NCBI GenBank assembly: GCA_964350885.1
Contig: CAYGKV010000006.1
Span: forward strand, 18-64,017
Direction of reading: 5' to 3'
Length of the DNA: 64,000 nt
Source: an uncultured Candidatus Saccharibacteria bacterium
GTDB taxonomy: Bacteria; Patescibacteriota; Minisyncoccia; Phycocordibacterales; UBA2100
Within the stretch, counting starts at the first letter, position 1. Every line of letters starts with the position of its first letter. Positions 5,732-56,562 of this stretch are shown here, piece by piece. The notes under the pieces were generated by a model. That model did not search any database and had not been told where the DNA came from. It was given only the letters and a program-made list of their open reading frames with translations. The translations under genes were made by a program, and so were the position numbers.

Positions 5732-6179
5732 TCACATTGATGAAGAAGCTGGCATTGCCTTTGGTTGCCTGTACCATCCCACCAAAGCCGCCGGGATTAT
5801 CCAGTAGCCGAGGAGGATGAGCGTGGTCCAGTTCCAGATGAAGGGCACGAAATTCGGCAACACATCGACGACCGAAGAGAAGGAGCCGCTCTGCGCCAAG
5901 ACGCCCGCGACACCGGTCACAAACGCCGTTACGATCGCGACCGCAAATCCTGTAACGCCAAAGATTACACCGCTTTGGAGGCTTCGCGGTGCCCCGCCCA
6001 TGTACCACCACGTTAGAGCTCCAACTACGATTGCGGCGAGAGCGACGAACACCATGTATTGTGGTGTGAGAATTCCTCCACCTGCGGCGGCCGGTACGAG
6101 CGCGACGACTGCGGCGACTACCGTGTTAATCAAATAATTTCCAAAGAATCCCACCAATACTGATCGTTCGACGTTCATA
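5732..6179 (-). CDS. hypothetical integral membrane protein
   Basis: ORF 5732..6268; start taken at MNVERSVLVG (6179); four hydrophobic helices. Confidence 0.45.
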
Positions 6180-6295
6180 TTGCAGTAATAATTATAAATA
6201 AGGGGTAACGGCATAAGGATACCATACCTTTTTTCGCAAATGATGGGGGAGAGGCGGCCTGTGGACACTGGTTCCGGGGCTTTCCTAGCTTGATG

Positions 6296-6889
6296 CTATC
6301 TCTGCGCGTCTGCAAACCGCTTTTCCACCACACTCCAATTGAGGTTTTTGAAGAAGGCGTCGATGTATTTTCCTTTGCCCGCAGCGCCGTAATCGAGGAT
6401 GAACGCGTGTTCCCACACATCGAGGGCGAGAATAATGGGGAGCGTGACGAAATGCCCCTGGTGCTGCTCACCCGAGAATCCAGTGAGGAATTGCTTAGCC
6501 TCGGGATCCCAATACAGGATTGCCCACCCCGGGCCGCGCATGAGGGCGATCGCACGGAACATCCCGAGAAAATACTCGAGTTTCTGATACTCCGATTCGA
6601 TTTGTTTTGCGAGAGTTCCGTTTGTGGGCATCGATGAAGAGCCTCCCTCGAATTGAGCGAAGTAGAGCTCGTGAAGTCGCATGCCATCGAATTCAAATGA
6701 GCGGCGACGGATCAATTCGGAGAGCGCGTGCGCGTTTTTCTCAGGATCTTTGGCATATTCCGGCAACAGGGCTGAAATTGCGTTGAAATTCTTCACATAT
6801 CCCGCATAGAGGCCGAGATGTTCTTCTACGGATTTCTTTGAAATTCCCTCAAGCTCGGGCAGGGTAAACTTCTTTTCTTGGTATTGCAT
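6296..6889 (-). CDS. Fe/Mn-family superoxide dismutase
   Basis: LDVWEHAFILDYG matches the Fe/Mn SOD signature DVWEHAYYLDY; N-terminal KFTLPELEG resembles the SOD N-terminus; about 198 aa. Confidence 0.8.
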   Translation of the reverse strand: MQYQEKKFTLPELEGISKKSVEEHLGLYAGYVKNFNAISALLPEYAKDPEKNAHALSELIRRRSFEFDGMRLHELYFAQFEGGSSSMPTNGTLAKQIESEYQKLEYFLGMFRAIALMRGPGWAILYWDPEAKQFLTGFSGEQHQGHFVTLPIILALDVWEHAFILDYGAAGKGKYIDAFFKNLNWSVVEKRFADAQR

Positions 6890-7009
6890 GCTCCGCATTA
6901 TACACGCCCGTCTTTGAGGTGTGCATGAACGACTTGCACAAACTAGCATGTAAGGAGTAGGCTTGTGTCGTGAAGCTCGCGGTGAGCTCCATAAAAGCGG
7001 GGATGACAG

Positions 7010-7258
7010 ATGAGAAGGTTCACTTTAACGTTACAGGCAGGGGTCCTGCTGATGTTAGTGGCGGTCATTGGCGTCAATTTCGGCGGGGCGATGATCAAGC
7101 GCCTCCAGAAAGCGTCCTCCAGTTCGGAGGGAGATCAAAAGGTCCCCATGTTGCTGGGATCGTTAGATGGGGGGGAGCCTCCCATCATTGTCTTCGAGCA
7201 CGTCGGGTGCGAGAAGAATCCATACTGTAGCGTCCTCTGGAAGGGGGACGAGATGTAA
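7010..7258 (+). CDS. small hypothetical membrane/secreted protein (82 aa)
   Basis: N-terminal TM helix (LQAGVLLMLVAVIGV); followed by a strong UUCG-tetraloop terminator. Confidence 0.35.
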   Translation: MRRFTLTLQAGVLLMLVAVIGVNFGGAMIKRLQKASSSSEGDQKVPMLLGSLDGGEPPIIVFEHVGCEKNPYCSVLWKGDEM

Positions 7259-7265
7259 TCTCTGG

Positions 7266-7300
7266 GGCGCGGCGACTTCGGTCGCCGCGCTCACGATTTT
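7266..7300 (+). terminator. rho-independent terminator
   Basis: ggggcgcggcgac-ttcg-gtcgccgcgctc stem-loop followed by acgattttt. Confidence 0.65.
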
Positions 7301-7353
7301 TAGAAATTCTCAATGAGCGCTGGAGATATCGTTTGTGAATGTAGAATGGCGCA

Positions 7354-8211
7354 ATGCGTCGAAGCGTACAGATTGTAGGGATCACGATACTCTTCTTTTT
7401 GTGCACCAACGGAATTATCTGGTACACGGTGTTGCGCGAAGACCGGAATGGACTTCTCACGGTCTCTTTTCTCGACGTAGGCCAAGGTGACGCGATTTTT
7501 ATCGAAGCGCCATCGGGGCGTCAAGTGCTTATCGACGGCGGGCCCGGCAGTAATGTCTTGCAAAGACTCGCCGCGGTGATCCCTTGATGGGATCGCTCTA
7601 TTGATGTCGTGATTGCGACGCATCCTGATGCGGATCACATCAGCGGCCTCATTGATGTGCTCGATCGCTATACGGTCGGGACGGTAGTGCATTCGAGTAT
7701 AGAAGGGGATACGAAAACCGCGAAGGCGCTTGTCGAAGCGATGAGGCAGGAAGAAGGCGCAAAACAAATTACGGCAATGCGCGGGCAGATTATCGATCTT
7801 GGTCGTGGCGCGTACCTCGAGGTGCTTTTCCCGGACAGACCGCTCCCCAATGTGGAAACAAATCTCGGGTGTGTAGTTGCGCGGCTTGTCTATGGCGAGA
7901 CAGCATTTATGTTCTCCTGCGATTCTCCTCAGGCGATTGAGAATTATTTGGTGCGATTGGATGGGAAGGGTTTGCGCTCGGATGTATTGAAAGCAGGGCA
8001 CCATGGCTCCAAGACATCCTCGTCGGAGCTATTTTTGGGTTTTGTAAACCCAGCATACGGGGTTTACTCGCGTGGCTGTGAAAATAAATACGGCCACCCA
8101 TCTCAAGAGACGGTGGAGCGCTTCGCGCAATTCGAAATCCCGACGTTTGATACTTGCACGGACGGCACGATCACGTTCGTGTCGGATGGAAAAACCGTGG
8201 AGAAGAATTAG
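7354..8211 (+). pseudogene. ComEC-type metallo-beta-lactamase domain protein, membrane-anchored, interrupted by an in-frame TGA at 7585-7587
   Basis: ORFs 7354..7587 and 7609..8211 share one frame. Translation reads VLIDGGPGSNVLQRLAAVIP*WDRSIDVVIATHPDADHISGL, which is contiguous through the ComEC C-terminal MBL motif (HxHxDH). KAGHHGSKTSS follows downstream. Confidence 0.7.
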
Positions 8212-8450
8212 ATGAGTCCCGCTTTCTTGAGGGTGAGAAACGCACCACGTTTTTGCATGGTTTTGAGCCCTTTTGCAGATACTGTGATCGTGACTTTCTT
8301 GCCAAGCTCGGGAATGAAAAGGGTCTTTTTCTGGAGGTTGACCTGGCGGCGGCGTTTGCCGGTCGGATTGAATTTGGTCGCGCGGACACGGTTGGAATAC
8401 CCGCCGCCGACCTGGGAGTGTTTACCTGTTATTGCACAAATGCGGGCCAT
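8208..8450 (-). CDS. rpmB: 50S ribosomal protein L28
   Basis: MARICAITGKHSQVGGGYSNRVRATKFNPTGKRRRQVNLQKK is a typical L28 sequence. Confidence 0.9.
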   Translation of the reverse strand: MARICAITGKHSQVGGGYSNRVRATKFNPTGKRRRQVNLQKKTLFIPELGKKVTITVSAKGLKTMQKRGAFLTLKKAGLI

Positions 8451-8537
8451 ATGTTCGGGCATCCTAGCATTCGTGCCCGACAAACGCAATAAAATTGATG
8501 AAGTCTATACGCATACACGCATCTCGATGCAGCATAC

Positions 8538-8786
8538 CTAGAGATTGCGATATGTCTGCTCGTTCCTGCGCTCGATTGTGAACAAAAACGGTACGCCCTT
8601 GGATAGGCGGTATACAACGCGTACAGATCCCTTACGCGCACGGTAGATGTCATCTCTGCCTCTGAGCTTTTTGATATCGAGTCTCGAGGTTTCTCCTGCA
8701 ACGATGGCCGCAAGGATATGTCGCACTTTCTCGCGATCTTTGAGAGACAGCTTCGCGAGCTCTTTGTCGATGCGGTCCATATGCAC
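8538..8786 (-). CDS. type II toxin, RelE/ParE superfamily
   Basis: 82 aa; its start ATG overlaps the stop of the upstream antitoxin (ATGA); C-terminal VRVVYRL...FLFTIERRNE resembles the RelE/ParE core. Confidence 0.65.
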   Translation of the reverse strand: MHMDRIDKELAKLSLKDREKVRHILAAIVAGETSRLDIKKLRGRDDIYRARKGSVRVVYRLSKGVPFLFTIERRNEQTYRNL

Positions 8787-9007
8787 TAGATTCTCGACAG
8801 TATGTCTGCGATAGCGACCCCGCCCTTGCGAATCTTGGTGAAATCAACGACGGTTTCCCACGCGTCTTCCTCATCAGCCGGGGCAATCCGAAAGACAGGC
8901 TCAGATCGTCGAAATACAACAAATGACTCGCCCTTCCCTATGCGAGAAATATATGCGTCGAGATTCTCCCGCAACTCCTTCACGTTAACAGTCTTCATGC
9001 GCTTCAA
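8786..9007 (-). CDS. type II antitoxin, Phd/YefM-like
   Basis: 73 aa, KTVNVKELRENLDAYISRI; immediately upstream of the toxin and translationally coupled to it. Confidence 0.6.
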   Translation of the reverse strand: MKRMKTVNVKELRENLDAYISRIGKGESFVVFRRSEPVFRIAPADEEDAWETVVDFTKIRKGGVAIADILSRI

Positions 9008-9109
9008 GATAATCTTAAGATAAACTTATGTCAAGGTCACGGAATGACGAGAACGTAGACGATCTCGCACAAGAGGATGACATGCATCGTTTTATGAATA
9101 TACGAATAA

Positions 9110-9140
9110 CAAAAACGGCGGAGCAAGCTCCGCCGTTCTA
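9110..9140 (-). terminator. rho-independent terminator (reads on the minus strand)
   Basis: Minus strand: gaacggcggagcttgctccgccgtttttgtt, a hairpin followed by a T-run. Confidence 0.6.
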
Positions 9141-9153
9141 ACGCTTTGTGCAG

Positions 9154-9381
9154 CTAGTCACCGCGCGCGAGCGCGGCGAGCCTCGACACGACCAGGTAAA
9201 GGTCGACAAGGCCGCATTCGGACCAGGGTTGCGTTCTGGTGCAGAAATCGTGACAGGGTTCGGCGAGTTTCTGCAGCTGCCAAGCTGTGTAGAGCAGCTT
9301 TTCCCTGTCCAGTCTGTCGGCCGTCCTGACCTCTTGGTCAGTCAGACGACAATGTCCAGCGGTTTGTCCAAAGGACTCCAC
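9154..9381 (-). CDS. hypothetical small Cys-containing protein (75 aa, GTG start)
   Basis: On the minus strand a perfect SD (AAGGAGGTG) sits at the ORF start and the terminator at 9110-9140 lies downstream. Very GC-rich and could instead be an ncRNA. Confidence 0.3.
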   Translation of the reverse strand: MESFGQTAGHCRLTDQEVRTADRLDREKLLYTAWQLQKLAEPCHDFCTRTQPWSECGLVDLYLVVSRLAALARGD

Positions 9382-9475
9382 CTCCTTTCTTGACCAAGGA
9401 TTGGGTCAGTGTGGATATATAGCATGCCCTTGAAAAAACAAAAGGAAATCGGTTTGTGTTACTATTCCTGCACGC

Positions 9476-10096
9476 ATGGACATCTTCAGCATTGTATTCA
9501 TCGCATCGGTTATCATATTTTCCGTCATCGTCCACGAAGTGATGCACGGGGTTGCCGCAGATTATCTTGGCGATCCGACCGCTCGCTACGCAGGCAGGCT
9601 CACCCTCAACCCAATCCCGCACATCGACTTCATCGGATCGATCGTCCTCCCGATTCTCTCCGCGCTCTCGCCGGGCGTCTTCCTTTTTGGGTGGGCGAAG
9701 CCGGTGCCGTACAACCCGTACAATTTACGGCGCGCCCCCTATTGGGGAGAGGCGATCGTCGCCATAGCTGGGCCTGCCTCAAACCTCGCGCTTGCGGTCG
9801 TGTTTGGTCTATTGATCCGCCTCCAGATTTTGCCTGGCGTTGCCGATCTGTTTATGTACGTTGTTGCGGTCAATGTCTCTCTCTTGATCCTCAACCTCAT
9901 TCCCGTGCCGCCGCTCGACGGATCAAAGATATTCTCTGCGATTCTTCCGAAGAGTTTCGGCTACGATCGTTTGCGGGACCAGATGGAACAGAACCCATTC
10001 CTCGGTTTTGGCGTGGTCATTCTCCTCATCGTTTTGTTTGGCAGTGCCCTCGGAAGTGCAGCATATGCCCTCGCGCGGATGATTGCGGGGGCCTAG
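9476..10096 (+). CDS. site-2 protease family (peptidase M50) membrane metalloprotease
   Basis: HEXXH zinc motif (VHEVMHG) in TM1, RLTLNPIPHIDFIGS, LDG in a later helix; 206 aa, polytopic. Confidence 0.8.
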   Translation: MDIFSIVFIASVIIFSVIVHEVMHGVAADYLGDPTARYAGRLTLNPIPHIDFIGSIVLPILSALSPGVFLFGWAKPVPYNPYNLRRAPYWGEAIVAIAGPASNLALAVVFGLLIRLQILPGVADLFMYVVAVNVSLLILNLIPVPPLDGSKIFSAILPKSFGYDRLRDQMEQNPFLGFGVVILLIVLFGSALGSAAYALARMIAGA

Positions 10097-10176
10097 AGAT
10101 TGGCCTAAGTTCTTGCATGTGTGTTCAATAGATAGTACACTCCCGCGTACCCCTTAGGGGATTTTTAATTGAAGGC

Positions 10177-10593
10177 ATGTCAACCATAAATCAACTTACG
10201 CGCAAAGCTCGGGTCAAGAAGACCTGGCGCACGAAGACTATCGCGCTTTCGCGCGGCTTCAACACGCTCAAAAACCGCCCCTCTTTCTATCCTGCCCCCT
10301 TCAAGCGCGGTGTGTGCACACGCGTGACGACCAAGACTCCCCGCAAACCGAACTCAGCTATCCGTAAGATCGCTCGCGTGCGTTTGACCAACGGAATGGA
10401 GGTCACCGCCTACATTCCCGGCGAAGGCCACAACCTTCAGGAGCACTCTGTCGTCCTCCTTCGTGGCGGCCGCGTGAAAGACATCGGCGTGCGCTACACA
10501 ATCGTGCGTGGCAAATTGGATGCGACAGGAGTCGAGAAGCGCCGCCGCGGCCGTTCATTGTACGGAGCTAAAAAACCCAAAGCAGCAAAATAG
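10177..10593 (+). CDS. rpsL: 30S ribosomal protein S12
   Basis: PTINQL..., [16 protein letters not shown] motifs; slightly longer than usual because of an insertion. Confidence 0.92.
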
Positions 10594-10596
10594 CAT

Positions 10597-11058
10597 ATGC
10601 GCCGTCCCGTAAAAAACAGAATGCAGCCTGCTCCGGATGAAGTGTACGGCTCTTTCAAGATTGCCAAGCTCATCAACTACGTAATGGAGCGTGGCAAGAA
10701 AGACACAGCACGCAAGATTGTCTACAAGGTGATGGATGAGCTCAAGAAAGAAGGGGATCCGGTCACCATTTTCGAAGAGGCGCTCGAGAAGGCCTCTCCT
10801 TCCGTCGAGGTGCGCTCACGCCGCGTCGGTGGGGCCAACTACCAGGTGCCGCGCGAAGTAAATCCAAATCGCAAACTCGCGCTCGGCATGCGCTGGATCG
10901 TTGAGGCGGCCGAAGGTACGAAGGGCAAGCCGATGCATGAATCATTGCTCGCCGAAATCAAAGCCGCACACAAAGGCGAAGGCGCCGCTGTCACCAAGAA
11001 AGAAACGACGCACCGCATGGCCGAAGCCAACAAAGCGTTTGCCCACTTCGCGTGGTAA
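10597..11058 (+). CDS. rpsG: 30S ribosomal protein S7
   Basis: Conserved S7 core (GGANYQVP, KLALGMRWIV). Confidence 0.92.
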   Translation: MRRPVKNRMQPAPDEVYGSFKIAKLINYVMERGKKDTARKIVYKVMDELKKEGDPVTIFEEALEKASPSVEVRSRRVGGANYQVPREVNPNRKLALGMRWIVEAAEGTKGKPMHESLLAEIKAAHKGEGAAVTKKETTHRMAEANKAFAHFAW

Positions 11059-11067
11059 TTTAGGAAT

Positions 11068-13209
11068 ATGGCTCGCGACTATCCTTTAGAGAAGGTTCGC
11101 AACTTCGGTATTGTCGCGCACGTGGACGCGGGGAAGACCACCACGTCGGAACGAATCCTTTATTACACCGGCGAGTCGCACAAAATTGGCGAAGTGCATG
11201 AAGGCAATACCGTTACCGACTGGATGGAACAGGAGCGCGAACGCGGCATCACCATCACTGCGGCCGCGATTACGTGTTTTTGGAACCCGAGCTACATGGG
11301 TGCAGACCTCTCACAGAAAGTGCGTTTCAATATTATCGATACTCCCGGCCACATCGACTTCACCTCCGAAGTGAAGCGATCCATGCGCGTGCTAGACGGT
11401 GCTGTCGTCGTGTTCGATGGCGTCGCTGGCGTGGAGCCACAGTCAGAAACCAACTGGCGCTACGCGGAAGAGGCAAATGTGCCGCGCATCTGCTACATCA
11501 ACAAGCTCGATCGCACCGGTGCCTCGTTTGAAAAGTCATACGCTTCCATCCTTGATCGTCTTTCCAACAAAGCCGTTCGTTTCCAAATTCCCATCGGCCT
11601 CGAGGATAAATTCGAAGGGATTATCAACTTGCTCTCGATGAAGGCCTACAAATTTGAGGGGGAGATGGGGAAGAACGTCATTGCATATGACATCCCAGAG
11701 CACATGATGGCGGAGGCGAAGAAATATCACGATGAGCTCATCGAGCGCATCGTGGAAAACGACGATGCCGTGATGTCTGATTTTCTCGAAGGCAAAGAAA
11801 TTCCGCTCGACGTTCTCCAAAAAACGCTTCGCAAAGGCGTAATCGCCAACAAAATTTTCCCGGTACTTACTGGTTCCTCGCTCAAGAATAAGGGAGTGCA
11901 ATTGGTGCTGGATGCAGTCGTTGATTATCTGCCGTGTCCAAAAGACATGCCCGAATCAAAGGGAATCAATACCGACACCGGTGAACCTGACACACGTCCG
12001 GCGTCGGACGAGGCTCCGTTTGCCGCGCTCGTCTTTAAAATTCAAACCGATCCTTTCGTCGGTCAACTTTCTTTCTTCCGCGTGTACTCTGGAAGCTTTA
12101 CCGCAGGGGAGACGGTGTATGATTCTGCCAACAACAAGAAAGAGCGCGTCGGTCGCATCGTCCGACTGCAGGCCGATAAACGCGAAGACGTAAAGACGGT
12201 CTACGCGGGTGAGATTGCCGCTGCAGTGGGTATGAAAGAGGTGAAGATAGGCCACACGCTCTGCGATGCAGATCACCCGATAGCCCTCGAATCCATCGTG
12301 TTTCCGGAGCCGGTCGTCTCTATGCGTGTCGAGCCCAATACAAAAGGCGACCAGGAGAGAATGGGCATGGCGCTCTCCAAACTCTCCGATGAGGACCCAA
12401 CGTTCCGCGTCAAATCTGATCCAGAAACAGGCGAAACTATCATTTCAGGCATGGGAGAATTGCACCTCGAGATCATCGTCGATCGTATGAAGCGCGAATT
12501 CAATGTGCAAGCATCGACCGGCAAGCCCCAAGTCGCATACCGCGAGACGATCCAAGGGAACGCAGACGTGGAATACAAACACATCAAGCAGACGGGTGGC
12601 CGGGGTCAGTACGGTCATGTGAAAATTCGCATCAAACCGCTTGAGCCACTCGACCCTGAGAAGAAGGTGAAAAACAACGTCGATCGAGAAGATCATTTCG
12701 AATTCACCAACAACATCAAGGGGGGTGTCATCCCGCAAGAGTTCATTCAGCCCGTGAAGAAGGGCCTCAAAGAGGCGATGGATCGCGGTGTCCTCGCCGG
12801 ATTCCCAGTCGTAGATATCTCGGTGGAATTGTACGACGGTTCCGCACACGACGTAGACTCTTCTGAAATCGCGTTCAAATTGGCGGCGATTAATGCTATG
12901 CAGGAGGCGATGCAGAAAGCGAGGCCTGTCATCCTCGAGCCGATCATGAAATTGGAAGTCGTCGTCCCCGAGAAATTCATGGGCGATGTGACTGGCATGA
13001 TCAACAGTAAGCGCGGAGCGATCGAAGCCATGGGTGAGCGTGGTCAGGCGCGCGTGATTACGGCGAAGGTCCCACTCTCCGAGCTTTTCGGATTCACCAC
13101 ACAGCTCCGCTCTCTCACCGAGGGCCGCGGAGTTCCGAACCTAGAATTCTCTCACTACGCGATTGTGCCAAAGACCGCCGCCGATTCCGTCATCGCCGCG
13201 AGAAAATAA
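11068..13209 (+). CDS. fusA: elongation factor G
   Basis: 713 aa; G domain AHVDAGKTT, DTPGHIDF, NKLD; full EF-G architecture. Confidence 0.95.
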   Translation: MARDYPLEKVRNFGIVAHVDAGKTTTSERILYYTGESHKIGEVHEGNTVTDWMEQERERGITITAAAITCFWNPSYMGADLSQKVRFNIIDTPGHIDFTSEVKRSMRVLDGAVVVFDGVAGVEPQSETNWRYAEEANVPRICYINKLDRTGASFEKSYASILDRLSNKAVRFQIPIGLEDKFEGIINLLSMKAYKFEGEMGKNVIAYDIPEHMMAEAKKYHDELIERIVENDDAVMSDFLEGKEIPLDVLQKTLRKGVIANKIFPVLTGSSLKNKGVQLVLDAVVDYLPCPKDMPESKGINTDTGEPDTRPASDEAPFAALVFKIQTDPFVGQLSFFRVYSGSFTAGETVYDSANNKKERVGRIVRLQADKREDVKTVYAGEIAAAVGMKEVKIGHTLCDADHPIALESIVFPEPVVSMRVEPNTKGDQERMGMALSKLSDEDPTFRVKSDPETGETIISGMGELHLEIIVDRMKREFNVQASTGKPQVAYRETIQGNADVEYKHIKQTGGRGQYGHVKIRIKPLEPLDPEKKVKNNVDREDHFEFTNNIKGGVIPQEFIQPVKKGLKEAMDRGVLAGFPVVDISVELYDGSAHDVDSSEIAFKLAAINAMQEAMQKARPVILEPIMKLEVVVPEKFMGDVTGMINSKRGAIEAMGERGQARVITAKVPLSELFGFTTQLRSLTEGRGVPNLEFSHYAIVPKTAADSVIAARK

Positions 13210-13210
13210 T

Positions 13211-13567
13211 TTACGCGAGGCTTGCGCCTCTGGGGTTTCCTTCTTCAAGCTGTGCTTCAGAGAGATACTCGGCTAATCGTAGCTTTGCGATGCTAATTGT
13301 TAGAGCAACCTCAGCAAGTTTCTCTTCAGTTAGCGGTTGGAAGAGGATTGCTTTGATGTATCCTCGGACGTACGATTGAAATTCCGAGAGTTGTTCGTGG
13401 TCGGCTTTCCCCATTACTTTTTGCAGTTCACCTTCACCAGCAAGAGCCGTCCGGATTCCCTTGAGGACATGTTCGAGGCCCTCCTTTATTGCCGATTTCT
13501 TCTGCAGCTCCGCTATGTCCGCAAAAGAAACGGTGCGGCCGCTCTCGCCACGATTCGTTTCTTTCAT
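13211..13567 (-). CDS. hypothetical helical protein (118 aa)
   Basis: Clean ORF convergent with fusA, with stop codons 2 nt apart; no known motifs. Confidence 0.4.
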   Translation of the reverse strand: MKETNRGESGRTVSFADIAELQKKSAIKEGLEHVLKGIRTALAGEGELQKVMGKADHEQLSEFQSYVRGYIKAILFQPLTEEKLAEVALTISIAKLRLAEYLSEAQLEEGNPRGASLA

Positions 13568-13632
13568 GAGAAAATTTTAGCACACTCAGAGAAATACGTC
13601 CCTTTCGGTGTCTCAACAACCAACAAATTAAT

Positions 13633-14050
13633 AATTTTGTGCACAACTTCCTTGCACCCACTCTCTGTGATGTACAATGAACCCCATGCTCGCACGCATT
13701 CCTCGCACTCTCCTCCAGCTCTTCTTTCTGGGTGTTGTGGTATCACTCGCGCTTAGTCTCGATTACGTCTACGCAACACACGGCGGCTGGCACGGCCCCA
13801 CCGCAGCACCACCGGGCAACAACGTCGCCGCTCCCCTCAACGTCGGGAACGCTCTCCAGGGAAAGGGTGGCGGCCTCACCATTGGGAGTACTCTCGATGT
13901 TGTAGCCAGCACAACCATGAGCGGCGGACTCGGCTTCAGGACTCGTGGCTCAGCCCTCACAAACCCCGCCTTCACCATAGACATGGGTCCACTCCCTGAA
14001 GGAGCCAATTATGGCATTCGTTTTGCTGACGGGTCGGTGCAGTTGACGGC
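13633..14050 (+). repeat. copy A of a ~418-bp direct repeat: promoter plus the first ~125 codons of a secreted protein
   Basis: Essentially identical to 14583..15001. Contains TTGCAC-N15-TACAAT and the shared N-terminus MNPMLARIPRTLLQLFF...FADGSVQLTA. Confidence 0.9.
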
Positions 14051-14447
14051 GTATGAACCAAGTGTTGCGAAGGGACCAGTTACCATCGATTTTGAATGTT
14101 GGAATTCCGATGATAACGACGGTTGTAAATCGACGGTTTCGTGTCCGGTGGGGATGACTATAAAGTCTTCGAAGTTGGCGATGAACTTGGAATATGGGTT
14201 TGTTGGGAGTGGACAACTTGGCCAAGTTGCACAGAATACAATGACCGTATTAGCACCATCTTCTAATGTTGGCGACGGAGAAGCTGAGGTATGGTTGTCA
14301 ATGAGTGAAGAAGAAAATCCAAGAATTTCGTCAGGTTCAGTTGATATTTCGGGCGTAATTGGTAAGTCGAAGCTCCGCTACTCTTGCAAAGAGAATGATA
14401 GCAATGGTGGAGACTGTCACGCTCTGGGGCAAATGGTGTGCAACTAA
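13677..14447 (+). CDS. secreted protein, variant 1: shared N-terminal module plus a Cys-containing C-terminal domain
   Basis: Signal peptide (LLQLFFLGVVVSLALSLDYVYA); residues 1-125 are identical to the paralog at 14628; unique C-terminus with 6 Cys. Confidence 0.7.
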   Translation: MNPMLARIPRTLLQLFFLGVVVSLALSLDYVYATHGGWHGPTAAPPGNNVAAPLNVGNALQGKGGGLTIGSTLDVVASTTMSGGLGFRTRGSALTNPAFTIDMGPLPEGANYGIRFADGSVQLTAYEPSVAKGPVTIDFECWNSDDNDGCKSTVSCPVGMTIKSSKLAMNLEYGFVGSGQLGQVAQNTMTVLAPSSNVGDGEAEVWLSMSEEENPRISSGSVDISGVIGKSKLRYSCKENDSNGGDCHALGQMVCN

Positions 14448-14582
14448 TTTTTTGTATCAGCTTGAGACAAAAGCTCGGTGACTCTGACTCAGTTTTCAGA
14501 CCCTACTACTATGTGGAGCAATGCACCAGGGAGTGTTTTTCTTTTTTTGGGTCGTTTAGAACCTCAAAGTTCTGGCGTGCGT

Positions 14583-15001
14583 TTTCTTTGTGCATAACCT
14601 CCTTGCACCCACTCTCTGTGATGTACAATGAACCCCATGCTCGCACGCATTCCTCGCACTCTCCTCCAGCTCTTCTTTCTGGGTGTTGTGGTATCACTCG
14701 CGCTTAGTCTCGATTACGTCTACGCAACACACGGCGGCTGGCACGGCCCCACCGCAGCACCACCGGGCAACAACGTCGCCGCTCCCCTCAACGTCGGGAA
14801 CGCTCTCCAGGGAAAGGGTGGCGGCCTCACCATTGGGAGTACTCTCGATGTTGTAGCCAGCACAACCATGAGCGGCGGACTCGGCTTCAGGACTCGTGGC
14901 TCAGCCCTCACAAACCCCGCCTTCACCATAGACATGGGTCCACTCCCTGAAGGAGCCAATTATGGCATTCGTTTTGCTGACGGGTCGGTGCAGTTGACGG
15001 C
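14583..15001 (+). repeat. copy B of the same ~418-bp direct repeat
   Basis: See copy A. The junction with unique sequence has a short tandem (gacggctgc)x2 at 14995-15012. Confidence 0.9.
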
Positions 15002-15491
15002 TGCGACGGCTGCGACGGGCGGACAGGTGCTTTCGTTTGATAAATATTTACATCTTCAACACCGTCCAGGAATTGGTGGTTACGCGGTGCCTCAAGGTTG
15101 GAATGTCCGACCATTTAATATCATCATTACTAACACAATTACGGGTGCGTCACTATCGTCAAATCGCGTAACACTCCCAGTCGGCACATACTACATCCAG
15201 GCAAAGGCGAATGCGTATAGTTCACGCACCTTTCAGTCCGCAATATATAACGTCACCGCAGGGAGTTACATACTGTTTGGCATTATGGGGTTTGCAAATG
15301 GGGGTACCGACGACCAAGGTGGGGGCAACTCTATTGTGAGCGGGGTGTTCACATTAGGCGCGCAGTCGCAACTCGAGGTACGTTTCGGTGCGTATGAAAC
15401 CGGATTGTGTTATCGCGCAGATCTTTTGATACCAGGCGGAAATGAAGCAAACTATGTGTGTACTGACGTAGAGATTTGGAAGTTGGATTAG
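14628..15491 (+). CDS. secreted protein, variant 2: shared N-terminal module plus a tail-fibre/C1q-like beta-rich C-terminal domain
   Basis: Same first ~125 aa, then a unique 160-aa C-terminal domain (GWNVRPFNIIITNT...VEIWKLD). Confidence 0.7.
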   Translation: MNPMLARIPRTLLQLFFLGVVVSLALSLDYVYATHGGWHGPTAAPPGNNVAAPLNVGNALQGKGGGLTIGSTLDVVASTTMSGGLGFRTRGSALTNPAFTIDMGPLPEGANYGIRFADGSVQLTAATAATGGQVLSFDKYLHLQHRPGIGGYAVPQGWNVRPFNIIITNTITGASLSSNRVTLPVGTYYIQAKANAYSSRTFQSAIYNVTAGSYILFGIMGFANGGTDDQGGGNSIVSGVFTLGAQSQLEVRFGAYETGLCYRADLLIPGGNEANYVCTDVEIWKLD

Positions 15492-15537
15492 TCGTGTGTG
15501 ATTTGCGCACTACTCATAAGAGTCTCCGCACAAAAAG

Positions 15538-15846
15538 ATGTATAATGAGCGCATGAACTTCTTTTCATCGACTTGGGCGCGCGTCGGGGGTGCACTCTTG
15601 CTTCTTGGCGCCTTCCTTTTTTGGTTCATCACGATGTACGCACCACCCACAGATGAATCTTTGCCAGTGATATCAATCTCGGCCAGCGACGATTCTTCTC
15701 TTTCTGCACGCGAGGCGATGCTCCAAGCCGTCACGTCTACCAGCACCACTACCCTTGAGGAACGTGAAGCGCTTCTCCGATTAATAGGCACTTCTACCGG
15801 CTCGACTGTGGAAGAACGAGAGGCGATGCTCAGGTCAGTGCAGTAA
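15538..15846 (+). CDS. small membrane protein with triplicated EEREA(M/L)L motif
   Basis: TM helix, then three copies of xxREAMLQAV / EEREALLRLI / EEREAMLRSV; extended -10 (tgtataatg) upstream. Confidence 0.5.
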   Translation: MYNERMNFFSSTWARVGGALLLLGAFLFWFITMYAPPTDESLPVISISASDDSSLSAREAMLQAVTSTSTTTLEEREALLRLIGTSTGSTVEEREAMLRSVQ

Positions 15847-16839
15847 TTGTCTATGGATCACGCGTACCAGACCGCCGCTGCGATTTTGTCGGCGCTCCTC
15901 TTGATTATCGCAGTGGCATTTTTCTCTCTGAATCCCCGTACCGCTTCTGCGGTGCACTCGAATGCCATAACAGGCTACGCATGGAGCGATACTATCGGCT
16001 GGATATCTCTCAACTGTGTAGACGGCGGGACGAACGGATCGGATATTTGCGGCACGTTCCCCTACGGTCTCATTGTGGACCCAGCAAATGGAAACATCTC
16101 AGGATACGCATGGAGCGACAACATCGGCTGGGTTTCTGCAAACGTAGCTACTGGATGTCCTTCGGGCACGTGCACTGCTCGAATCAATGGCAGTACAATA
16201 TCGGGGTGGCTAAAGGCGCTTGCCGGTGGTTCGGCGCAAAGCGGGGGATGGGACGGATGGATTAGCCTTTCCGGTAGTGGTATCGACTCGACAGGGCTTC
16301 CTTTTTCCTACGGCATCACCAAAAAAACCGACGGCACGTTTACCGGCTATGCATGGGGGAGCGCAGTCGTCGGGTGGGTTGATTTCAAAACACATGTTGT
16401 GCAAACGCACTATTCCGTATGCACCCCCTCAACTGTTTACACCTGTGTCGGTGTTGGCACAGTTCGTACTACCGTCACCGACCCCTATTGCGTGGTAACG
16501 ACAAGCGACGAGGTGTGCGATCCGCCCAAATATTGCTCCCCTGGTGTCTCTACTTGTCTCGAATCTCCCCCCACAATTACAAGGCACCTTGAGGCAATTC
16601 CGCAGCTAGTCAAAAAAGGCGGAACCACAAAGTTGTACTGGGACGTCAGCAACGTGAAGAGATGCACTGTGTCGGGTAACGGACAGACGTGGAACCTCAA
16701 GTCTTCGGGTACGGCCGGCCGGACCACCACCGCCATCAACCAACGTACCGTCTATACGATGACCTGCACCCAGATGAACAATACGACCTTCACCGAAACC
16801 GCAACCATTAGCGTCTCGCCGGTGTTTCAGGAAAGATGA
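15847..16839 (+). CDS. secreted/membrane-anchored GYAWS-IGWIS repeat protein with Cys-rich and Ig-like C-terminal domain
   Basis: N-terminal TM/signal; four repeats (ITGYAWSDTIGWISLNC, ISGYAWSDNIGWVSANV, GGWDGWISLSG, FTGYAWGSAVVGWVDF); paralog of 31588..32841. Confidence 0.7.
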   Translation: MSMDHAYQTAAAILSALLLIIAVAFFSLNPRTASAVHSNAITGYAWSDTIGWISLNCVDGGTNGSDICGTFPYGLIVDPANGNISGYAWSDNIGWVSANVATGCPSGTCTARINGSTISGWLKALAGGSAQSGGWDGWISLSGSGIDSTGLPFSYGITKKTDGTFTGYAWGSAVVGWVDFKTHVVQTHYSVCTPSTVYTCVGVGTVRTTVTDPYCVVTTSDEVCDPPKYCSPGVSTCLESPPTITRHLEAIPQLVKKGGTTKLYWDVSNVKRCTVSGNGQTWNLKSSGTAGRTTTAINQRTVYTMTCTQMNNTTFTETATISVSPVFQER

Positions 16840-16898
16840 TATTGGATTTTTAGACGATGTAGAAGGATATGACACAATTTCTCTGGTATCATTAGAAG

Positions 16899-19532
16899 TT
16901 GCCAATCGCGAACATGACAAAGATAATCACTTCAAGCAGTCTCGGTTTGCTTCTCATGCTCACTCCCTTTGTTTCTTTTGCCGATATCTTAAGCGATCTC
17001 CAAGCTCAAATACAGATGCTTCTCGCCCAGGTCGCGATTCTTGAGCGACAGGTGCAATTGCAAACCCCCGTACTACCGCTGGTTGTTTCTACGCCCCCTT
17101 CGGGTGGAAGTTGCCTCCTACTCTCACGCCCTCTTTCGCAAGGGATGAGCGGCTCTGACGTTACTGCCCTGCAGATATTTTTGTCCCAAGACAGGGTTGT
17201 GTATCCGGAGGCATCTGTCACGGGTTTTTTCGGGCCTCTCACCGAGCGTGCCTTGCAGCGATGGCAAAGCGCGCGCGGCATCGTCTCTTCTGGTAGTCCC
17301 GCCACTACCGGATGGGGGGTCGCTGGGCCACGGACACGCTCGATGATACAGCTCGTCTCGTGTTCAAGTGTGCCGACTCCGCCTGTCACGAATATTCCAC
17401 CGTATGTACCGCCTTCGATTCCTTGTACGATGGGCGGCATCACGGTACCCGCGGGGAGTTTGGTGCCGTTCTACGCGCACTCATCAATTGCAAACGGTCT
17501 GCGCTGCGAACAGTTTATGCAAATGCGGCAGTGCGTAAATGGCGTACTGACTGGCAACAACGAGTATCAATATCCTTCGTGTTCAGTGCGCACGCCGCTT
17601 TCCTGTAATGCAGGCGGCACGACAGTTCAGAACGGAACATCCCAGCTGTTCTACTCGCAGGCCTCGGTCGCATTTGGCGGGTCGTGCAGTGCGGTATCGC
17701 AAATGCGCACCTGTGCCGATGGCGTGCTCTCGGGCTCTTCTCAATACACCTCTGCGTCCTGCTCGGTCGCAGCGGCACAAGCGTGTAGGGTGGATGGTGT
17801 CGAGTTGGCGCACAACACATCCCGCGCGTTCTATTCCAGAGCGTTGGTTGGCTTCGGAGAGAACTGCTTGCCCCATGTGCAGACGCGCGCGTGTACCAAC
17901 GGCACGCTCTCAGGGAGCAGTGATTTCAATAAGACATCCTGCACGAGTGCGACGAGTACCTCGTGCTCGTTGGGTGGTGCCAGTGTCGCCAATACTGCTT
18001 CGAGGCTGTTTTATTCGGTCGAATCTGTCGCCTTCGGGAGCACCTGTACTCCGCATAGCTTGTCCCGCACCTGTACAAACGGCATTTTGAGCGGCACTTC
18101 GACGCATCCATTCCCCACGTGCACTGTCGCGGCGGCTTCATCGTGTGTACTTGATGGAGCCGTTGTCGCGCACAATGCGTCGAGAACCTTCTACACGAGT
18201 GACACGGTTCCATTCGGACAGTCGTGCAGCGCGACTACCGTGGCCAAATCACGTACGTGCACGAATGGGGTATTGGGTGGAGACACTGCGGCCAACAAGG
18301 CATCATGCTCTGTCGGATCGCAGCCAGCCCCCACGTGTTCCATGAGCGTTAACAATCCGATTATTAGGCCGAATCCTCCGACGAACGGTTCGGTGACTGC
18401 GACGTGGGCAAGCCAGAACGCAACGACAGGCAGTTTGTCGTGGGTATCTGGCCAGAATATTTCTGTTGCACCAGCAAGTGGTTCGCGGACGGTCACCTAC
18501 GATTCGATAGGGCAAAAGACGATCACACTTTCTCTCACGGGCCCTGGCGGTTCGGGGCAGTGTAGTACACAAGTGACGGTACAAAATGATTTGCCGCCGA
18601 CCTGCAATCTGAGAGTGACCCGTATCGGGGCGACGACAGCGAGCACGACCGCTGTCACCAATCTCACATACGGTACGTCGATCACGCTTTCCTGGAATAG
18701 CACACGAGCGACCGACTATGCGTCGTCCACTTCCGCGACGACGACTGCGCAAGTCTCATCCGGCTCATCCACTTTTGTGCCCACCGCTTCTGGAGCGATC
18801 ACCTATACATTCAACGGACCTGGCGGACAGTGTCAGAAGAGCGTGACGGTCGGGTATGTCGCACCGACATGCTCAGTAACAGCCGTACCCTCGACGGTAA
18901 TCTATGGAGATTCCGTGACACTCAATTGGACGAGTGCAAACGCCGATTACCTCACCGCGACATCCTCCGATCGCATCGCGATTGCAGGCTCTGTCGTCTT
19001 TCCGAATCAAACATCAACGACCGACTACGTATTCCAGGCATTTGGGAGGGGAGGACAGCGTCAGTGTACGACGCGCGTGACGGTTCCGCAGCGAATTGCT
19101 GTGGATGCCCCAGCCGGGGGTGTCGTCGTCCAGACCGGGAACCAGCTTGCAATCGCTCTGCGTAGCGTCGGCACGCTCCCCACATCTCCGGGCGCCTACC
19201 TAGAGCTCCGCAAATCCGACAACACAAATCTTGGAATTATTGCCACTCGGGTCAATCCAAACGGAAGTCTAGGATGGACCGTGCCAACGACCGTGGGCAA
19301 CAACACGATCACGAGCGGCAGCTACTTCATTCGAGCTACACTCTATCATCCTATGAGTGCATGCTCGGGCACCACGTGTACCGGCTCGGCGATTGTAGAC
19401 GGTAGAGCGGATAGCAGCATCTTCACGATCTCAACAACAACAGTCGCCGCGGGGACGTCTCGGAATCTCGCGAATGCATTGGCCGCACTTGAATCCGCAC
19501 TTAAAGCACTTATCGATCAGTTGAAGCAATAA
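16899..19532 (+). CDS. large secreted surface protein: signal peptide, coiled coil, peptidoglycan-binding-like domain, ~6 Cys-containing ~55-aa repeats, Ig-like repeats, conserved C-terminal helix
   Basis: 877 aa; LSQGMSGSDVTALQIFLS...GFFGPLTERALQRWQ resembles PG_binding_1; repeated C..GG..V.NG.S..FY....V.FG.SC......RTC.NG.LSG......SC modules; C-terminus RNLANALAALESALKALIDQLKQ. Confidence 0.75.
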   Translation: MPIANMTKIITSSSLGLLLMLTPFVSFADILSDLQAQIQMLLAQVAILERQVQLQTPVLPLVVSTPPSGGSCLLLSRPLSQGMSGSDVTALQIFLSQDRVVYPEASVTGFFGPLTERALQRWQSARGIVSSGSPATTGWGVAGPRTRSMIQLVSCSSVPTPPVTNIPPYVPPSIPCTMGGITVPAGSLVPFYAHSSIANGLRCEQFMQMRQCVNGVLTGNNEYQYPSCSVRTPLSCNAGGTTVQNGTSQLFYSQASVAFGGSCSAVSQMRTCADGVLSGSSQYTSASCSVAAAQACRVDGVELAHNTSRAFYSRALVGFGENCLPHVQTRACTNGTLSGSSDFNKTSCTSATSTSCSLGGASVANTASRLFYSVESVAFGSTCTPHSLSRTCTNGILSGTSTHPFPTCTVAAASSCVLDGAVVAHNASRTFYTSDTVPFGQSCSATTVAKSRTCTNGVLGGDTAANKASCSVGSQPAPTCSMSVNNPIIRPNPPTNGSVTATWASQNATTGSLSWVSGQNISVAPASGSRTVTYDSIGQKTITLSLTGPGGSGQCSTQVTVQNDLPPTCNLRVTRIGATTASTTAVTNLTYGTSITLSWNSTRATDYASSTSATTTAQVSSGSSTFVPTASGAITYTFNGPGGQCQKSVTVGYVAPTCSVTAVPSTVIYGDSVTLNWTSANADYLTATSSDRIAIAGSVVFPNQTSTTDYVFQAFGRGGQRQCTTRVTVPQRIAVDAPAGGVVVQTGNQLAIALRSVGTLPTSPGAYLELRKSDNTNLGIIATRVNPNGSLGWTVPTTVGNNTITSGSYFIRATLYHPMSACSGTTCTGSAIVDGRADSSIFTISTTTVAAGTSRNLANALAALESALKALIDQLKQ

Positions 19533-19576
19533 ACTGAACTGGCCTACACGCGCTTGACGTCTTGTGTTCTTGGAGA

Positions 19577-19598
19577 TAAGGTTGATGTATATTAATCA
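19577..19598. promoter_or_regulatory. perfect 9-bp inverted repeat (ATGTATATT-N4-AATATACAT), candidate TA operator
   Basis: Lies directly upstream of the Phd/YefM-RelE operon start (ATG 19605) in an AT-rich promoter region. Confidence 0.5.
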
Positions 19599-19604
19599 AT
19601 ATAC

Positions 19605-19847
19605 ATGCATATGACGAAGACAATTCCCATTTCCAAAGCGCGCGTTAATCTCGGGGCTGTCGTGCGGGGTGTACGTGAGAAGGGTGACGTGATAGTGCTA
19701 GAAAAAGACGGTATACCGGTTGCCTCTATCGTTGGCGTTGACGCTATAGAAGATCTTCGCGACGCATTAGATCTGGCAACAGCGCGCATGAAGACGCAAA
19801 AAGACGCGCTCGTAGACTGGGCAGACGTGCGCGCGAAGTATGTATAA
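19605..19847 (+). CDS. type II antitoxin, Phd/YefM family
   Basis: 80 aa, ISKARVNLGAVVRGVREKGDVIVLEKDGIPVASIV; overlaps the toxin start by 8 nt. Confidence 0.7.
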   Translation: MHMTKTIPISKARVNLGAVVRGVREKGDVIVLEKDGIPVASIVGVDAIEDLRDALDLATARMKTQKDALVDWADVRAKYV

Positions 19848-20088
19848 AGTGCTTCTCAAGACTTCTGCCAAGAAAGAACTCGATTCACTTCCAGCGAGCG
19901 TACAGAAAAGAATTTCTGCTGCCATCGACGAATTGAGACGCATGGGTATTCATGCGAAACATACTATAAAACCTCAAGCCCCGATCGGCGGGTATCGTAA
20001 GCGAGTGGGCGAGTATCGGATTCTCTTCGATCGAGATGCAGAAATCATTCTTGTTCATCAGATTTCGAAACGCTCTGAGGCATACTAA
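19840..20088 (+). CDS. type II toxin, RelE/ParE family
   Basis: 82 aa; KKELDSLPASVQKRISAAIDEL...YRKRVGEYRILFDRDAEIILVHQISKRSEAY is a classic RelE/ParE-like core. Confidence 0.7.
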   Translation: MYKVLLKTSAKKELDSLPASVQKRISAAIDELRRMGIHAKHTIKPQAPIGGYRKRVGEYRILFDRDAEIILVHQISKRSEAY

Positions 20089-20160
20089 ATCCTGAATGAT
20101 GAGCATGGATAACGTTATCCACACGACGTCATATCTAAAAAGGGGGGGTGTGGCATTGTA

Positions 20161-23100
20161 ATGACATTACTTGTAAAACTTTTTTCTTACGTCACGAAAA
20201 ATCGCGTTTGGAAGCGTCGGATTACTCCTCCTCATCCTGCCTTTCACCGTCTCGGCACAATCGCTCACCGATCTCCAAGCCCAAATCCAAGCGCTTCTAG
20301 CTCAGATTGCTGCACTCCAGAATCAACAAACACCAATTACTGATCCACCAACCGACGACTATCCCGGCGATACCCCTTCCTCCTCCTGCCCTCAGCTCTC
20401 CTCCACCCTTCAGAGAGGCGCTCGTGACGCTTCAACAGGTGGACAGGTTTCCGAGCTCCAGATATGGCTTTCCAGCTACTACAACCTCAACGAAGAAGAT
20501 GTCGTCACCGGCTACTTCGGAAGAACGACTGAGCGCTACGTAAAGAAATTCCAGACAGAGCAAGGCCTCCCCTCCTTCGGTATCGTGGACTCCCTTACGC
20601 GCGCCAAAATTGCGCAGGTGTGTGGGGGAAATGTTCCGATCCCTCCATCGTCAGCGAGTCTCTCTGCCTCGCCAATATCCGGTCCTGCACCGCTCACAGT
20701 ATATTTTCAGGGAAGCGGTTCGGCACTGGACCAGGGTGCGTTCATTAATTTCGGTGATGGAACGAATAGTGGTAACGGAATAGTAAACGTGAATCACGCA
20801 TACAACTATCCCGGCACGTATACCGCAACCTTGCATAAAAACGGGGCCAAAGGTGAAATTGTCGCCAGAGCGACCATAACGGTTACCGGAGGCACCGTGG
20901 GAGGCATCACCGTCACAGCCCCCAACGGCGGAAAAAGTTACTGCGTGGGGGACACAATAGATATAAAGTGGGCGCATCCAAGCAACATGAGTTCGGTGAC
21001 GCTACAGTTGTTTACTCCGGGAGTCGGGTTGAATGGCGGAACTATCGGAAGTTACTCAACCCAAGGAACAGGAGTCGGCGGCATACAGTGGCAGTTGAAA
21101 CAGGCCGGGCGATACACTGTCGCGCCGGGACCCCATAAGATCAGCGTACACGGAAATAGCGGTGGCGTTGGGATGTCTGATGAAAGTGATGCGTGGTTTA
21201 CCGTTAAACAATGCGATCAGCCAGGATCGCCCATTTCTGTCACCGCCCCCAACGGGGGTGAGCAGTGGGAGATTGGGCAGCTCAACACAATCACGTGGAA
21301 TCCCTATAACCCGACTGGCACTAACGCATCGAATCAAGTCATCGTTTATCTTGAAAAGTGTGCAGTTGACGGAGGATGTGAGACGGTTGGACGTGTCATA
21401 GAAGCTGGCAAGGCCTCGCTCCATACGTATTTCAACATCAACGATTACCAAACATTTGCGAAGCCAGGCATCTATTATGTACGCGCGGTCAACAACGTAA
21501 CGGGCGCTTGGGATCGAAGTGACAAACCGTTTACACTACTTCCTCGGAGAGCTGATCTGAAGGTAAATGGATCCGACGGCCCAATTACCTTGACTGACAA
21601 CCAAAAAATCACTGTCACATGGTCTGTAAGCGACGCAGATAAGTGTAGCTTGCACAGCGTTCGAGAGTCCTATGGGGCCAATGATGCTGCAATTCATGAT
21701 CTCCCCCCTACTGGAAATCGCGAACTGTACGCATATGTCAATTCGTACAGCTCCAATTTTATCTGGCTGAATTGCTCAAAAGGAGGTTCCGCTTATGCAG
21801 CTGAAGATAAAGTATATGTGAATATTGGCAATGCTCCGGCGAGTCTTCAGGTTAAAAGTCCTAATGGTGGTGAACAGCTTGATCCCAAAAAAGAAATGAT
21901 GATCACATACCTTCCGTCAGGCCTGAAGTCAGTTTCGGTCGCATTATACAAAAATGACCAGTGGAAAACGTGGATTCAGAAAGATGCTGTAATGCTACCC
22001 GATTTTAATTCCCCAGTAGGACCTACGCTGGTTCCGTCCGAATGGATTCAGGGACTAGGGGAAGGCGATAACGCTGGTGCGATTTGGAAGGTCTATGTTA
22101 CCGGGCAAAAAGTCGATGGTAGCGGATACGTCGACGACAAGAGCGACGCGGCGTTTAGTTTTGTCACTTCGCCAACAGTCTCGCGCGGGGTGCACGTCGT
22201 CGGTGTCTACGAGGGCACCTACCCCTCTGGAGTGTTTCATTCCTCCAACAACCATCCGGAAGGAACGGTTAATGTTGCGATTACCGGATTTGCGACCCCT
22301 CCTTCGGTTCTCGTGCTTTCGTCCTACGAACCAATGCACTGGGTCATTAACAATCCGTCCGGGGCCGCCTTTGAGAAAGTCGTCACACTCGGCTATCACG
22401 ATCAACGCGTCAGCGGGCTTCCTACGGGCACTGTGGTAGAGAGTCACACGGTAGCGAAAGACGGAAACTACGCATGGAGCTGCGCGTATGCAAATTACGA
22501 GACGGACGGCGGATGTAGCTATAACAGTCTGAAAAACTGGCTGAGCGCTCGCGGGATGCCGGTCACTACATTTACCGGTAGCTACGCTGGTAAAGCCTTT
22601 ACAGTCTCACTCGGTGGTGCAACGAGTACACCAACAATCTTCGCGGCAAAGAACTCTAGTTTCGGAAATCAGACTCACTTAGCGGGGACGAACAACGCAA
22701 AAATCGGCTCGTTCACACTTTCGGGAACTGGGATCACGCTTCAGAGAATCGTAATAGAACACTCCGCAGAAGCAGTGGCGGCGTTCAGGAGCCTTAAGTT
22801 AGTGGATGCCGTAACGGGAGCACAGATTGGTAATGTTATTGCTACTCCATCGGGAGCCAACACCTTCGCGTTCGGAACCACTACATTACTTTCCGGAACA
22901 AAGACATTCGATGTCTACGCAAACATAATCTCAAGCGCCACGCCTAGAACGCACATTGTGAGCGTTGATGCATCTACAGGAGGTATCATCACGTCAACAG
23001 GTGCGTCAGTGAATATCGGTGCGGATGTAGGACTCCAGACAATTAACGTTCTTGGAAGCGGAGGCGGCACGCTTACAGTCACTCGTGACGTAGGAACGCC

Positions 23101-47512: not shown

Positions 47513-47566
47513 TATACCCCGTGGGATGGCGGCTTTTGGTCTACTCAATAGGGTATACTTTCTCTC

Positions 47567-55809: not shown

Positions 55810-56047
55810 CGCTTTGTCACTGTATTCGTGTGTTCCGTACCCCCATCTGCAATCGCGCGGGTGGGGGTATAATCTTTTTGAACACGCTGGCATTCGCGTC
55901 TCCGGATTCGAATGGCGAGGTTTGGGGTGCAATTCCCCTAAAAAAGAAACGAGTTGGTGCCGCACGCTATCGAGCGGAGGCTCGGAATTCGATACAGCCT
56001 ATTTGAGCATTCATACGGCAGTGCAAAGGAAGGCGCGCGGCACAAGA

Positions 56048-56166: not shown

Positions 56167-56181
56167 TCTCGTTCAACGCTT

Positions 56182-56544: not shown

Positions 56545-56551
56545 AATAGTC

Positions 56552-56562
56552 GGGGGGGGGGG
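56552..56562. repeat. G11 homopolymer between the divergent avd and RT starts
   Basis: gtcggggggggggg tacg; simple-sequence tract in the presumptive promoter region. Confidence 0.9.

Follow-up and report, generated by a model that had tools for sequence, protein, structure and literature searches.

How do two neighbouring genes come to share a nearly letter-perfect start region and 125 codons, and then end in domains without detectable similarity to each other? The question is raised by genes A and B, which lie side by side in the window analysed here, the whole stretch of 64,000 nucleotides (64 kb) of a contig from an uncultured Candidatus Saccharibacteria bacterium. The source is probably a bacterium of the Patescibacteria (candidate phyla radiation, CPR), of the ultra-small type, and PMC12206443 describes partner-cell recognition by ultra-small episymbiotic bacteria as largely unknown. 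We consider it likely that A and B are co-expressed mini fibre adhesins, which combine a common 5′ unit with two heads and result from very recent recombination. The locus has the following parts.

13677 to 14447, forward strand: gene A (256 aa), with signal peptide, stalk and Cys-rich head; probable true start at 13686
14628 to 15491, forward strand: gene B (287 aa), with signal peptide, stalk and TNF/C1q-like head; probable true start at 14637
13636 to 14050, forward strand: repeat copy 1, upstream DNA near the promoter plus codons 1-125 of gene A
14587 to 15001, forward strand: repeat copy 2, upstream DNA near the promoter plus codons 1-125 of gene B
14448 to 14586, forward strand: unique spacer between A and B
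14996 to 15018, forward strand: 9-bp tandem GACGGCTGC, x2.6 by Tandem Repeats Finder (TRF), encoding the linker TAATAAT

The two repeat copies (13636-14050 and 14587-15001) form a direct repeat with an offset of 951 nt. They differ at 2 of 415 nt (13644, C in copy 1 versus T in copy 2; 13648, T versus C) and are perfectly identical over 402 nt (13649-14050 = 14600-15001). The similarity ends abruptly at either edge, and no other long near-identical repeat was found in the 64 kb window. The same-strand genes A and B have their first 125 residues in common, and beyond that similarity was undetectable; their products are identical to proteins P0003 and P0001, respectively. The earlier note on this DNA had described a near-identical duplication (with coordinates about 3 nt too long at the left) that diverges abruptly into unrelated C-termini, one Cys-rich and one tail-fibre/C1q-like, and both points were confirmed. 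Its interpretation, very recent duplication or ongoing gene conversion, was borne out in the form of a recent duplication or homogenised copies; its remark on "otherwise diverged paralogs" was judged within the window, with ~65 kb of genome covered.

The 9-bp tandem that had been reported at the breakpoint of copy B is also present. Homologs carry a TTAA(T)GGG linker at this position, so that the tandem is best read as a minor slippage expansion that doubled "TAA" in a pre-existing linker. A recombination scar, which we also considered for the tandem, is ruled out by the same homolog linker.

The earlier note had also considered that the two copies could stem from an assembly collapse or a duplication artefact. 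Protein look-ups led to contigs of other samples' assemblies (MEGAHIT k141, Logan), each 100% identical to the window. Seven such contigs between them cover every junction and support both copies:

6068 to 13789 (L099/L101): upstream DNA into repeat 1, ending exactly 140 nt (k-1) into the perfect repeat
12573 to 13678 (L103): upstream DNA into repeat 1
13090 to 14251 (L102): upstream DNA, the entire repeat 1 and head A
13910 to 14740 (L104): the final 141 nt of repeat 1, then head A, the spacer and the start of repeat 2 with its private variants
13910 to 14727 (L105): the same parts joined as in L104
14600 to 19491 (L001): repeat 2, head B and downstream DNA
14600 to 15520 (L002): repeat 2 and head B

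L104 and L105 were located by predicting the partial gene product (13911-14447) expected from a k=141 graph. Exact look-up of the full-length gene A product (P0003) in the other assemblies gave no match, nor was the k=31 analogue of the predicted partial product found there. Only one linear path passes every junction a single time, namely the tandem as it stands in the window. A deletion allele would give no new k-mers and thus could not be revealed by the assemblies; their evidence may be compatible with a coexisting deletion allele or 951-bp circle besides the tandem.

We have then considered what the shared and the divergent parts encode.

13677 to 13775 (copy 2: 14628 to 14726), forward strand: signal peptide, residues 1-33; hydrophobic helix 10-34 in the AlphaFold model
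13776 to 14048 (copy 2: 14727 to 14999), forward strand: shared stalk/anchor module, residues 34-124, starting with WHGPTAAPPGNNVAAPLNVG and ending with YGIRFADGSVQLTA
14079 to 14444, forward strand: head A, a disulfide-rich beta-sandwich, residues ~135-256
15033 to 15488, forward strand: head B, a TNF/C1q-like jelly roll, residues ~136-287

The signal peptide region ends in ...VYA. In the homologs, the equivalent boundary, A|W, directly precedes a WxxPTAAPPGNN motif, at the place of the strongly conserved WTGPTAAPPGNNVAAPLNVG..Q.K.GGL. As judged from the modelled helix and this boundary, residues 1-33 would be a Sec signal peptide with putative cleavage. The stalk that follows has 91 residues (19.6% Gly, 10.9% Thr), which agrees with the signal peptide and Gly/Thr-rich N-terminal module proposed earlier. 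Residues W38, P41, N49, P53, N55, Q61 and K63 are invariant across 18 homologs. Pfam, NCBIfam and PHROG models gave no match for this N-terminal module (N-module), and its monomer had a low predicted local distance difference test (pLDDT) score in the AlphaFold model, as expected for a fibrous trimer.

The module ends in the junction motif FADGSVQLTA. The best sequence match of the N-module profile in the PDB was the Bdellovibrio fibre Bd2133; the match was weak (E 0.017), and the aligned stretch GNVGIGATAPTAKLEVAGTIHSTSGGIKFPDGSVQTTAASGAA corresponds to Bd2133 residues ~867-911. Within it, the junction motif aligns with GGIKFPDGSVQTTAA of Bd2133, immediately before the tip. The published tip-only construct of Bd2133 starts at residue 910. 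Since the match ends where this construct starts, the alignment identifies the A/B divergence point as a conserved shaft-to-tip junction.

Structure prediction of both heads, a step that had been suggested earlier, returned a confident beta-sandwich model for A and a TNF/C1q fold for B. Head A contains 6 Cys and belongs to an uncurated family of 206 clusters, which usually cap cellular beta-helix adhesins at the C-terminus and are without a close solved structure. Viral relatives of head A were undetectable, and gene A gave no match in Pfam, NCBIfam or PHROG searches. We have inspected the best 150 of the 206 relatives, and the N-module was absent from all 149 inspected representatives. PDB sequence searches with both head profiles returned nothing significant. 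In the monomer model, head B forms a ten-strand jelly roll superposable on TNF, C1q or BclA. It matches the tail fiber protein phrog_24210 (E 6.7e-16; residues 150-253 against positions 171-272 of the 303 in the profile, which is its tip part only) and also 204 IMG/VR stretches. These profile matches identify head B as a homolog of phage tail-fibre tips. The GC content at third codon positions (GC3) is 0.637 for the coding part of the module (0.644 for EF-G) and lower for the two heads (0.424 and 0.466).

The repeat also contains the start signals of both genes.

13673 to 13678 (copy 2: 14624 to 14629), forward strand: -10 box TACAAT, 7 nt before the ATG at 13686 (copy 2: 14637)
13638 to 13645: palindrome TGTGCACA, 48 nt upstream of the probable start codon; it reads TGTGCATA in copy 2 (14589 to 14596)

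The promoter claimed earlier, TTGCAC-N15-TACAAT, is present as written (13652-57 and 13673-78), and its two boxes fared differently. The proposed -35 box is weak: TTGCAC matches TTGACA at 3/6 positions, the spacer has 15 nt versus the 16-18 nt of sigma-70, and a consensus promoter scan did not call the A/B site. The -10 box TACAAT is credible because it stands 7 nt before the second ATG, because homologs show comparable layouts (TACAAT-N6-ATG in L003, TATACT-N7-ATG in L005 and TATAAT-N8-ATG in L097b) and because the pattern is window-wide, a TAnnnT box lying 5-9 nt before the start codon in 15/35 window genes versus a 4.6% background. Shine-Dalgarno motifs are nearly absent across the window, suggestive of widespread leaderless mRNAs. 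From this near-absence and the -10 layout, the A and B mRNAs are probably leaderless too, with the second in-frame ATG (13686/14637) as the probable true start codon; the first ATG overlaps the -10 box and is unlikely to be used. Examples of TAnnnT boxes near other window starts are 15544-15549, 47554-47559 and 57075-57080, and a 102-aa open reading frame (ORF) probably starts at 15553 rather than 15538.

The repeat starts 2 nt before the palindrome, and one of the only two A/B mismatches falls within it (TGTGCACA versus TGTGCATA). The same 8-mer is found 47-50 nt upstream of family gene starts in L003 (5951), L090 (6392) and L095 (6359), which places it upstream of N-module genes in four separate lineages including the window, where it occurs 3 times against 0.9 expected. 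This distribution suggests that the palindrome may be the site of a shared regulator. In the spacer (14448-14586), a consensus scan found no terminator-like site and the RNA fold was not above shuffles (z = +1.19); Rfam gave zero matches in the window.

The N-module is found mainly in Patescibacteria (Falkow-, Kaiser-, Sacchari-, Staskawicz- and Portnoybacteria, and Paceibacterota), with a few metagenome-assembled genomes labelled proteobacterial. A profile search with the module gave short fragments only, a few of them from named Patescibacteria. A metagenome scan returned distant relatives only, and a genome scan did not return the window's own genome. Several relatives form arrays:

L088, Kaiserbacteria: 4 N-module genes, 71-78% nt identity over short (69-279 nt) stretches
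L090 and L095, Saccharibacteria: 3 and 4 N-module genes, 66-75% nt identity
L107 (1739-4774), a JGI contig: 3 tandem N-module genes, 80-87% nt identity over ~180 nt
L093 (4962-5711) and L097 (2862-3563, 5004-5576), one Paceibacterota genome: 3 N-module genes, ~92% nt identity over the 390 nt that begin at the start codon

In each array, the N-module similarity yields to unrelated, often Cys-rich C-termini that differ per paralog. With N-module nt identities of 66-92% in the arrays elsewhere, the window pair is the extreme at 100%. The full-length architecture of gene B recurs in four proteins (P0002, P0004, P0005 and P0006). Compared with B, P0002 has a head identity of 73% and an N-module identity of 35%, P0004 an N-module identity of 49% and a head identity of 40%, and for P0005 and P0006 the head identity is higher to phage-type heads (54-58%) than to B (37%). 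These mosaic identities, the head relationships and the GC3 values point to repeated head exchange, including exchange with phage. Of the constant anchor with exchangeable cassettes that had been envisaged earlier, the modularity thus stands for the family on an evolutionary scale, whereas programmed switching was not supported.

In the reading that we favour, A and B, two neighbours each started on its own, would encode small secreted proteins of the fibre or adhesin type, each made up of a Sec signal peptide, a ~90-residue Gly-rich, tail-fibre-like stalk/anchor and a C-terminal binding head. The identical 5′ unit would comprise the palindrome, the -10 box, the probably leaderless start, the signal peptide and the stalk up to FADGSVQLTA. 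Head B would be a trimer-type TNF/C1q jelly roll of phage tail-fibre ancestry, and head A would come from the cellular adhesin pool, where its type caps beta-helix adhesins. Both proteins would be made from equivalent start signals and would dock alike, presenting two binding specificities; their presumed targets are partner or host cell surfaces. As to the order of events, the B architecture may be ancestral, a copy of its 5′ module having been joined to a foreign head to give A. We favour this order because the B architecture occurs in four other proteins and the combination of N-module and head A is unique among the 149 inspected, and we judge its chances to be about even.

Several points weigh against this reading. 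Both mismatches fall within the first 13 nt of the repeat, which has a chance of ~0.001 under random mutation; such clustering fits a conversion tract or regulatory divergence better than plain duplication, and selection on the palindrome could account for it. The uniqueness of the head A combination refers to the best 150 of 206 relatives, and the count of family members to the ~65 kb of genome covered. Moreover, the stalk model is of low confidence and trimerisation is putative.

The position of the mismatches at the extreme left edge, as if outside a conversion tract, also speaks for concerted evolution, in which A and B would be old tandem paralogs whose 5′ parts have been repeatedly homogenised by gene conversion, with the tract ending on its right where homology stops, at the shaft-to-tip junction. 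Tandem arrays are indeed common in the family, and the paralog N-module identities in other genomes are compatible with such a process. However, an old A paralog would be without visible relatives, since none of the 149 head-A representatives carries the N-module. In addition, the segment shared by the Paceibacterota paralogs starts at the start codon, whereas upstream DNA is included here. We regard concerted evolution, including the proposed right-hand boundary of the tract, as the chief rival to our reading, possible but rather unlikely.

A further possibility is programmed or high-frequency head switching, with the 402-bp perfect repeats as substrates for reversible deletion, amplification or cassette exchange. 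The identical promoter-plus-stalk repeats would then be actively maintained as a recombination device, and RecA-driven deletion, re-amplification or conversion among members of the family would vary the heads. RecA acts readily on perfect direct repeats at such a spacing (951 bp), and the contigs of two samples run from the repeat into head B (L001, L002), that of another from the upstream DNA through the repeat into head A (L102). This junction pattern would fit an unequal abundance of the junctions, and low coverage as well. Each gene is intact and has start signals of its own. A search for silent C-terminal cassettes, which the earlier note had thought worth making, found none in the window, and no recombinase, integrase, invertase, phage gene or reverse transcriptase was found near A/B. 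We consider switching, and likewise the active maintenance of the repeats, improbable.

A prophage remnant with A and B as phage tail-fibre genes is very improbable. It would agree with the phrog_24210 and IMG/VR matches of head B, but an N-terminal signal peptide is unfit for a phage tail fibre, A and B stand in the core chromosome, flanked by fusA and tuf and without phage genes in the neighbourhood, gene B orthologs have cellular neighbours (DNA polymerase III, a tRNA synthetase and a sortase), and head A has no viral relatives. Least probable of all, and largely refuted, is an assembly artefact that joined two strain alleles of a single gene in tandem: although the record is a metagenome-assembled contig and the repeat edges do interrupt short-read contigs, the DNA that follows B is different from the spacer (14448-14586) behind A, L104 and L105 link head A, spacer and repeat 2 with its private variants, L102 links upstream DNA, whole repeat 1 and head A, and contig ends k-1 = 140 nt inside the repeat are expected of a true repeat at k=141.

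The gene order around the locus runs from rpsL-rpsG-fusA through a secreted-protein island of ~11.8 kb to tuf and ribosomal protein operons. The island (13211-24928) splits fusA from tuf in an otherwise conserved str/S10/spc order and contains A and B; it further encodes a membrane protein (102 aa), a repeat protein (330 aa), a PG_binding_1 protein (877 aa) and a PKD protein (1447 aa). A 118-aa ORF on the minus strand (13211-13567), without family match, is convergent with fusA and divergent from gene A, and has been annotated as a gene in the assemblies of several other samples. Repeat units of the type GYAWSDxIGW(I/V)S occur in two proteins (15847-16839 and 31588-32841), with 43-nt DNA repeats and no Pfam match.

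As a separate candidate, the A/B repeat was considered as a target of a diversity-generating retroelement (DGR) and rejected, the mismatches being C/T and T/C, with no reverse transcriptase near the locus and the DGR-like pair 40 kb away. That pair belongs to an element at 55204-57074, in which 55680-55791, at the 3′ end of a 201-aa gene, is 87% identical to 56047-56158; 13/15 mismatches coincide with adenines in the second copy, where AAC codons abound. A weak bAvd-like ORF (56182-56544, minus strand, E 6.9e-5) was under the Pfam cut-off, and reverse transcriptase-like peptide fragments were seen by eye at ~56.6-57.07 kb in two frames, without a Pfam reverse transcriptase match. The element may be a decayed DGR. 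Elsewhere in the window, a 43-nt direct repeat (81%) joins the 3′ end of a SLOG-family gene (57730-57772) with a copy at 60990-61032, ~70 nt beyond the stop of the ORF 60047-60919. A 937-aa protein with weak TraG/VirD4-type coupling-protein domains (47567-50380) is encoded directly after purD in the core chromosome.

The locus points to an uncurated Patescibacteria family of miniature tail-fibre-like surface proteins, the heads of which are exchanged at a conserved junction found also in Bdellovibrio fibres. One such exchange appears to be so recent that promoter and stalk remain identical in DNA. The leads it offers are two candidate specificity domains, an uncurated Cys-rich head family and a promoter layout with palindrome, -10 box and leaderless start. 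If the repeats did act as a switching device, a Patescibacteria population would vary its surface-fibre heads by drawing on phage and cellular domain pools. That fibres are modular and have their tips swapped is a principle already described for phage and for a predatory bacterium.

A conserved N-terminal part that provides homology for acquiring new C-terminal domains is also a feature of polymorphic toxin loci (Rhs/CdiA). These have displaced orphan C-terminal modules, whereas A and B come without toxin or immunity genes and both keep the full 5′ end and start signals, neither being an orphan. BclA (Bacillus exosporium / F-ENA tip) and the Pasteuria collagen-like adhesins differ from A and B, which are without GXY collagen repeats, and no sequence-level relation to either was found. 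Phage tail-fibre tips (phrog_24210) are homologous to head B and are likewise exchanged at a conserved shaft/tip junction; A and B are instead cellular, with signal peptides, and lie outside any virion module.

The closest known system is the mosaic adhesive trimer (MAT) fibre family of Bdellovibrio bacteriovorus, with phage tail fibres and BclA/Pasteuria-type fibres next. MAT fibres comprise 21 paralogs, in each of which a signal peptide and a conserved N-domain are combined with a tip that varies, TNF-like and S74 types among them, and their authors proposed tip swapping (PMC10769870). They belong to a predator, whereas A and B come from a probable Patescibacterium, another lineage. The MAT fibres measure ~1000 aa with a long shaft; A and B, at 256 and 287 aa, are about four times smaller, and a beta-helix shaft is almost absent. 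Where MAT fibres have a signal peptide and a conserved ~130-aa beta-rich N-domain, we found a signal-peptide-like helix and a conserved ~90-aa module without Pfam match, whose sole sequence link to the MAT fibres is the E = 0.017 match over the junction motif. The capping-loop motif V-G-G/N-pi-x-x-P-x-x-x-L of the trimeric beta-helix or prism shaft in MAT fibres is degenerate in the window protein (ALTNPAFTI); the homologs P0005, P0030 and L088c carry GIGTxxPxxxLxV. The window pair differs further in that its paralogs still share 100% identical DNA. What A and B have in common with the MAT fibres is a C-terminal tip that is independent and varies (of the S74 type or another, such as TNF-like), and in Bd2133 the A/B junction motif stands right before that tip.

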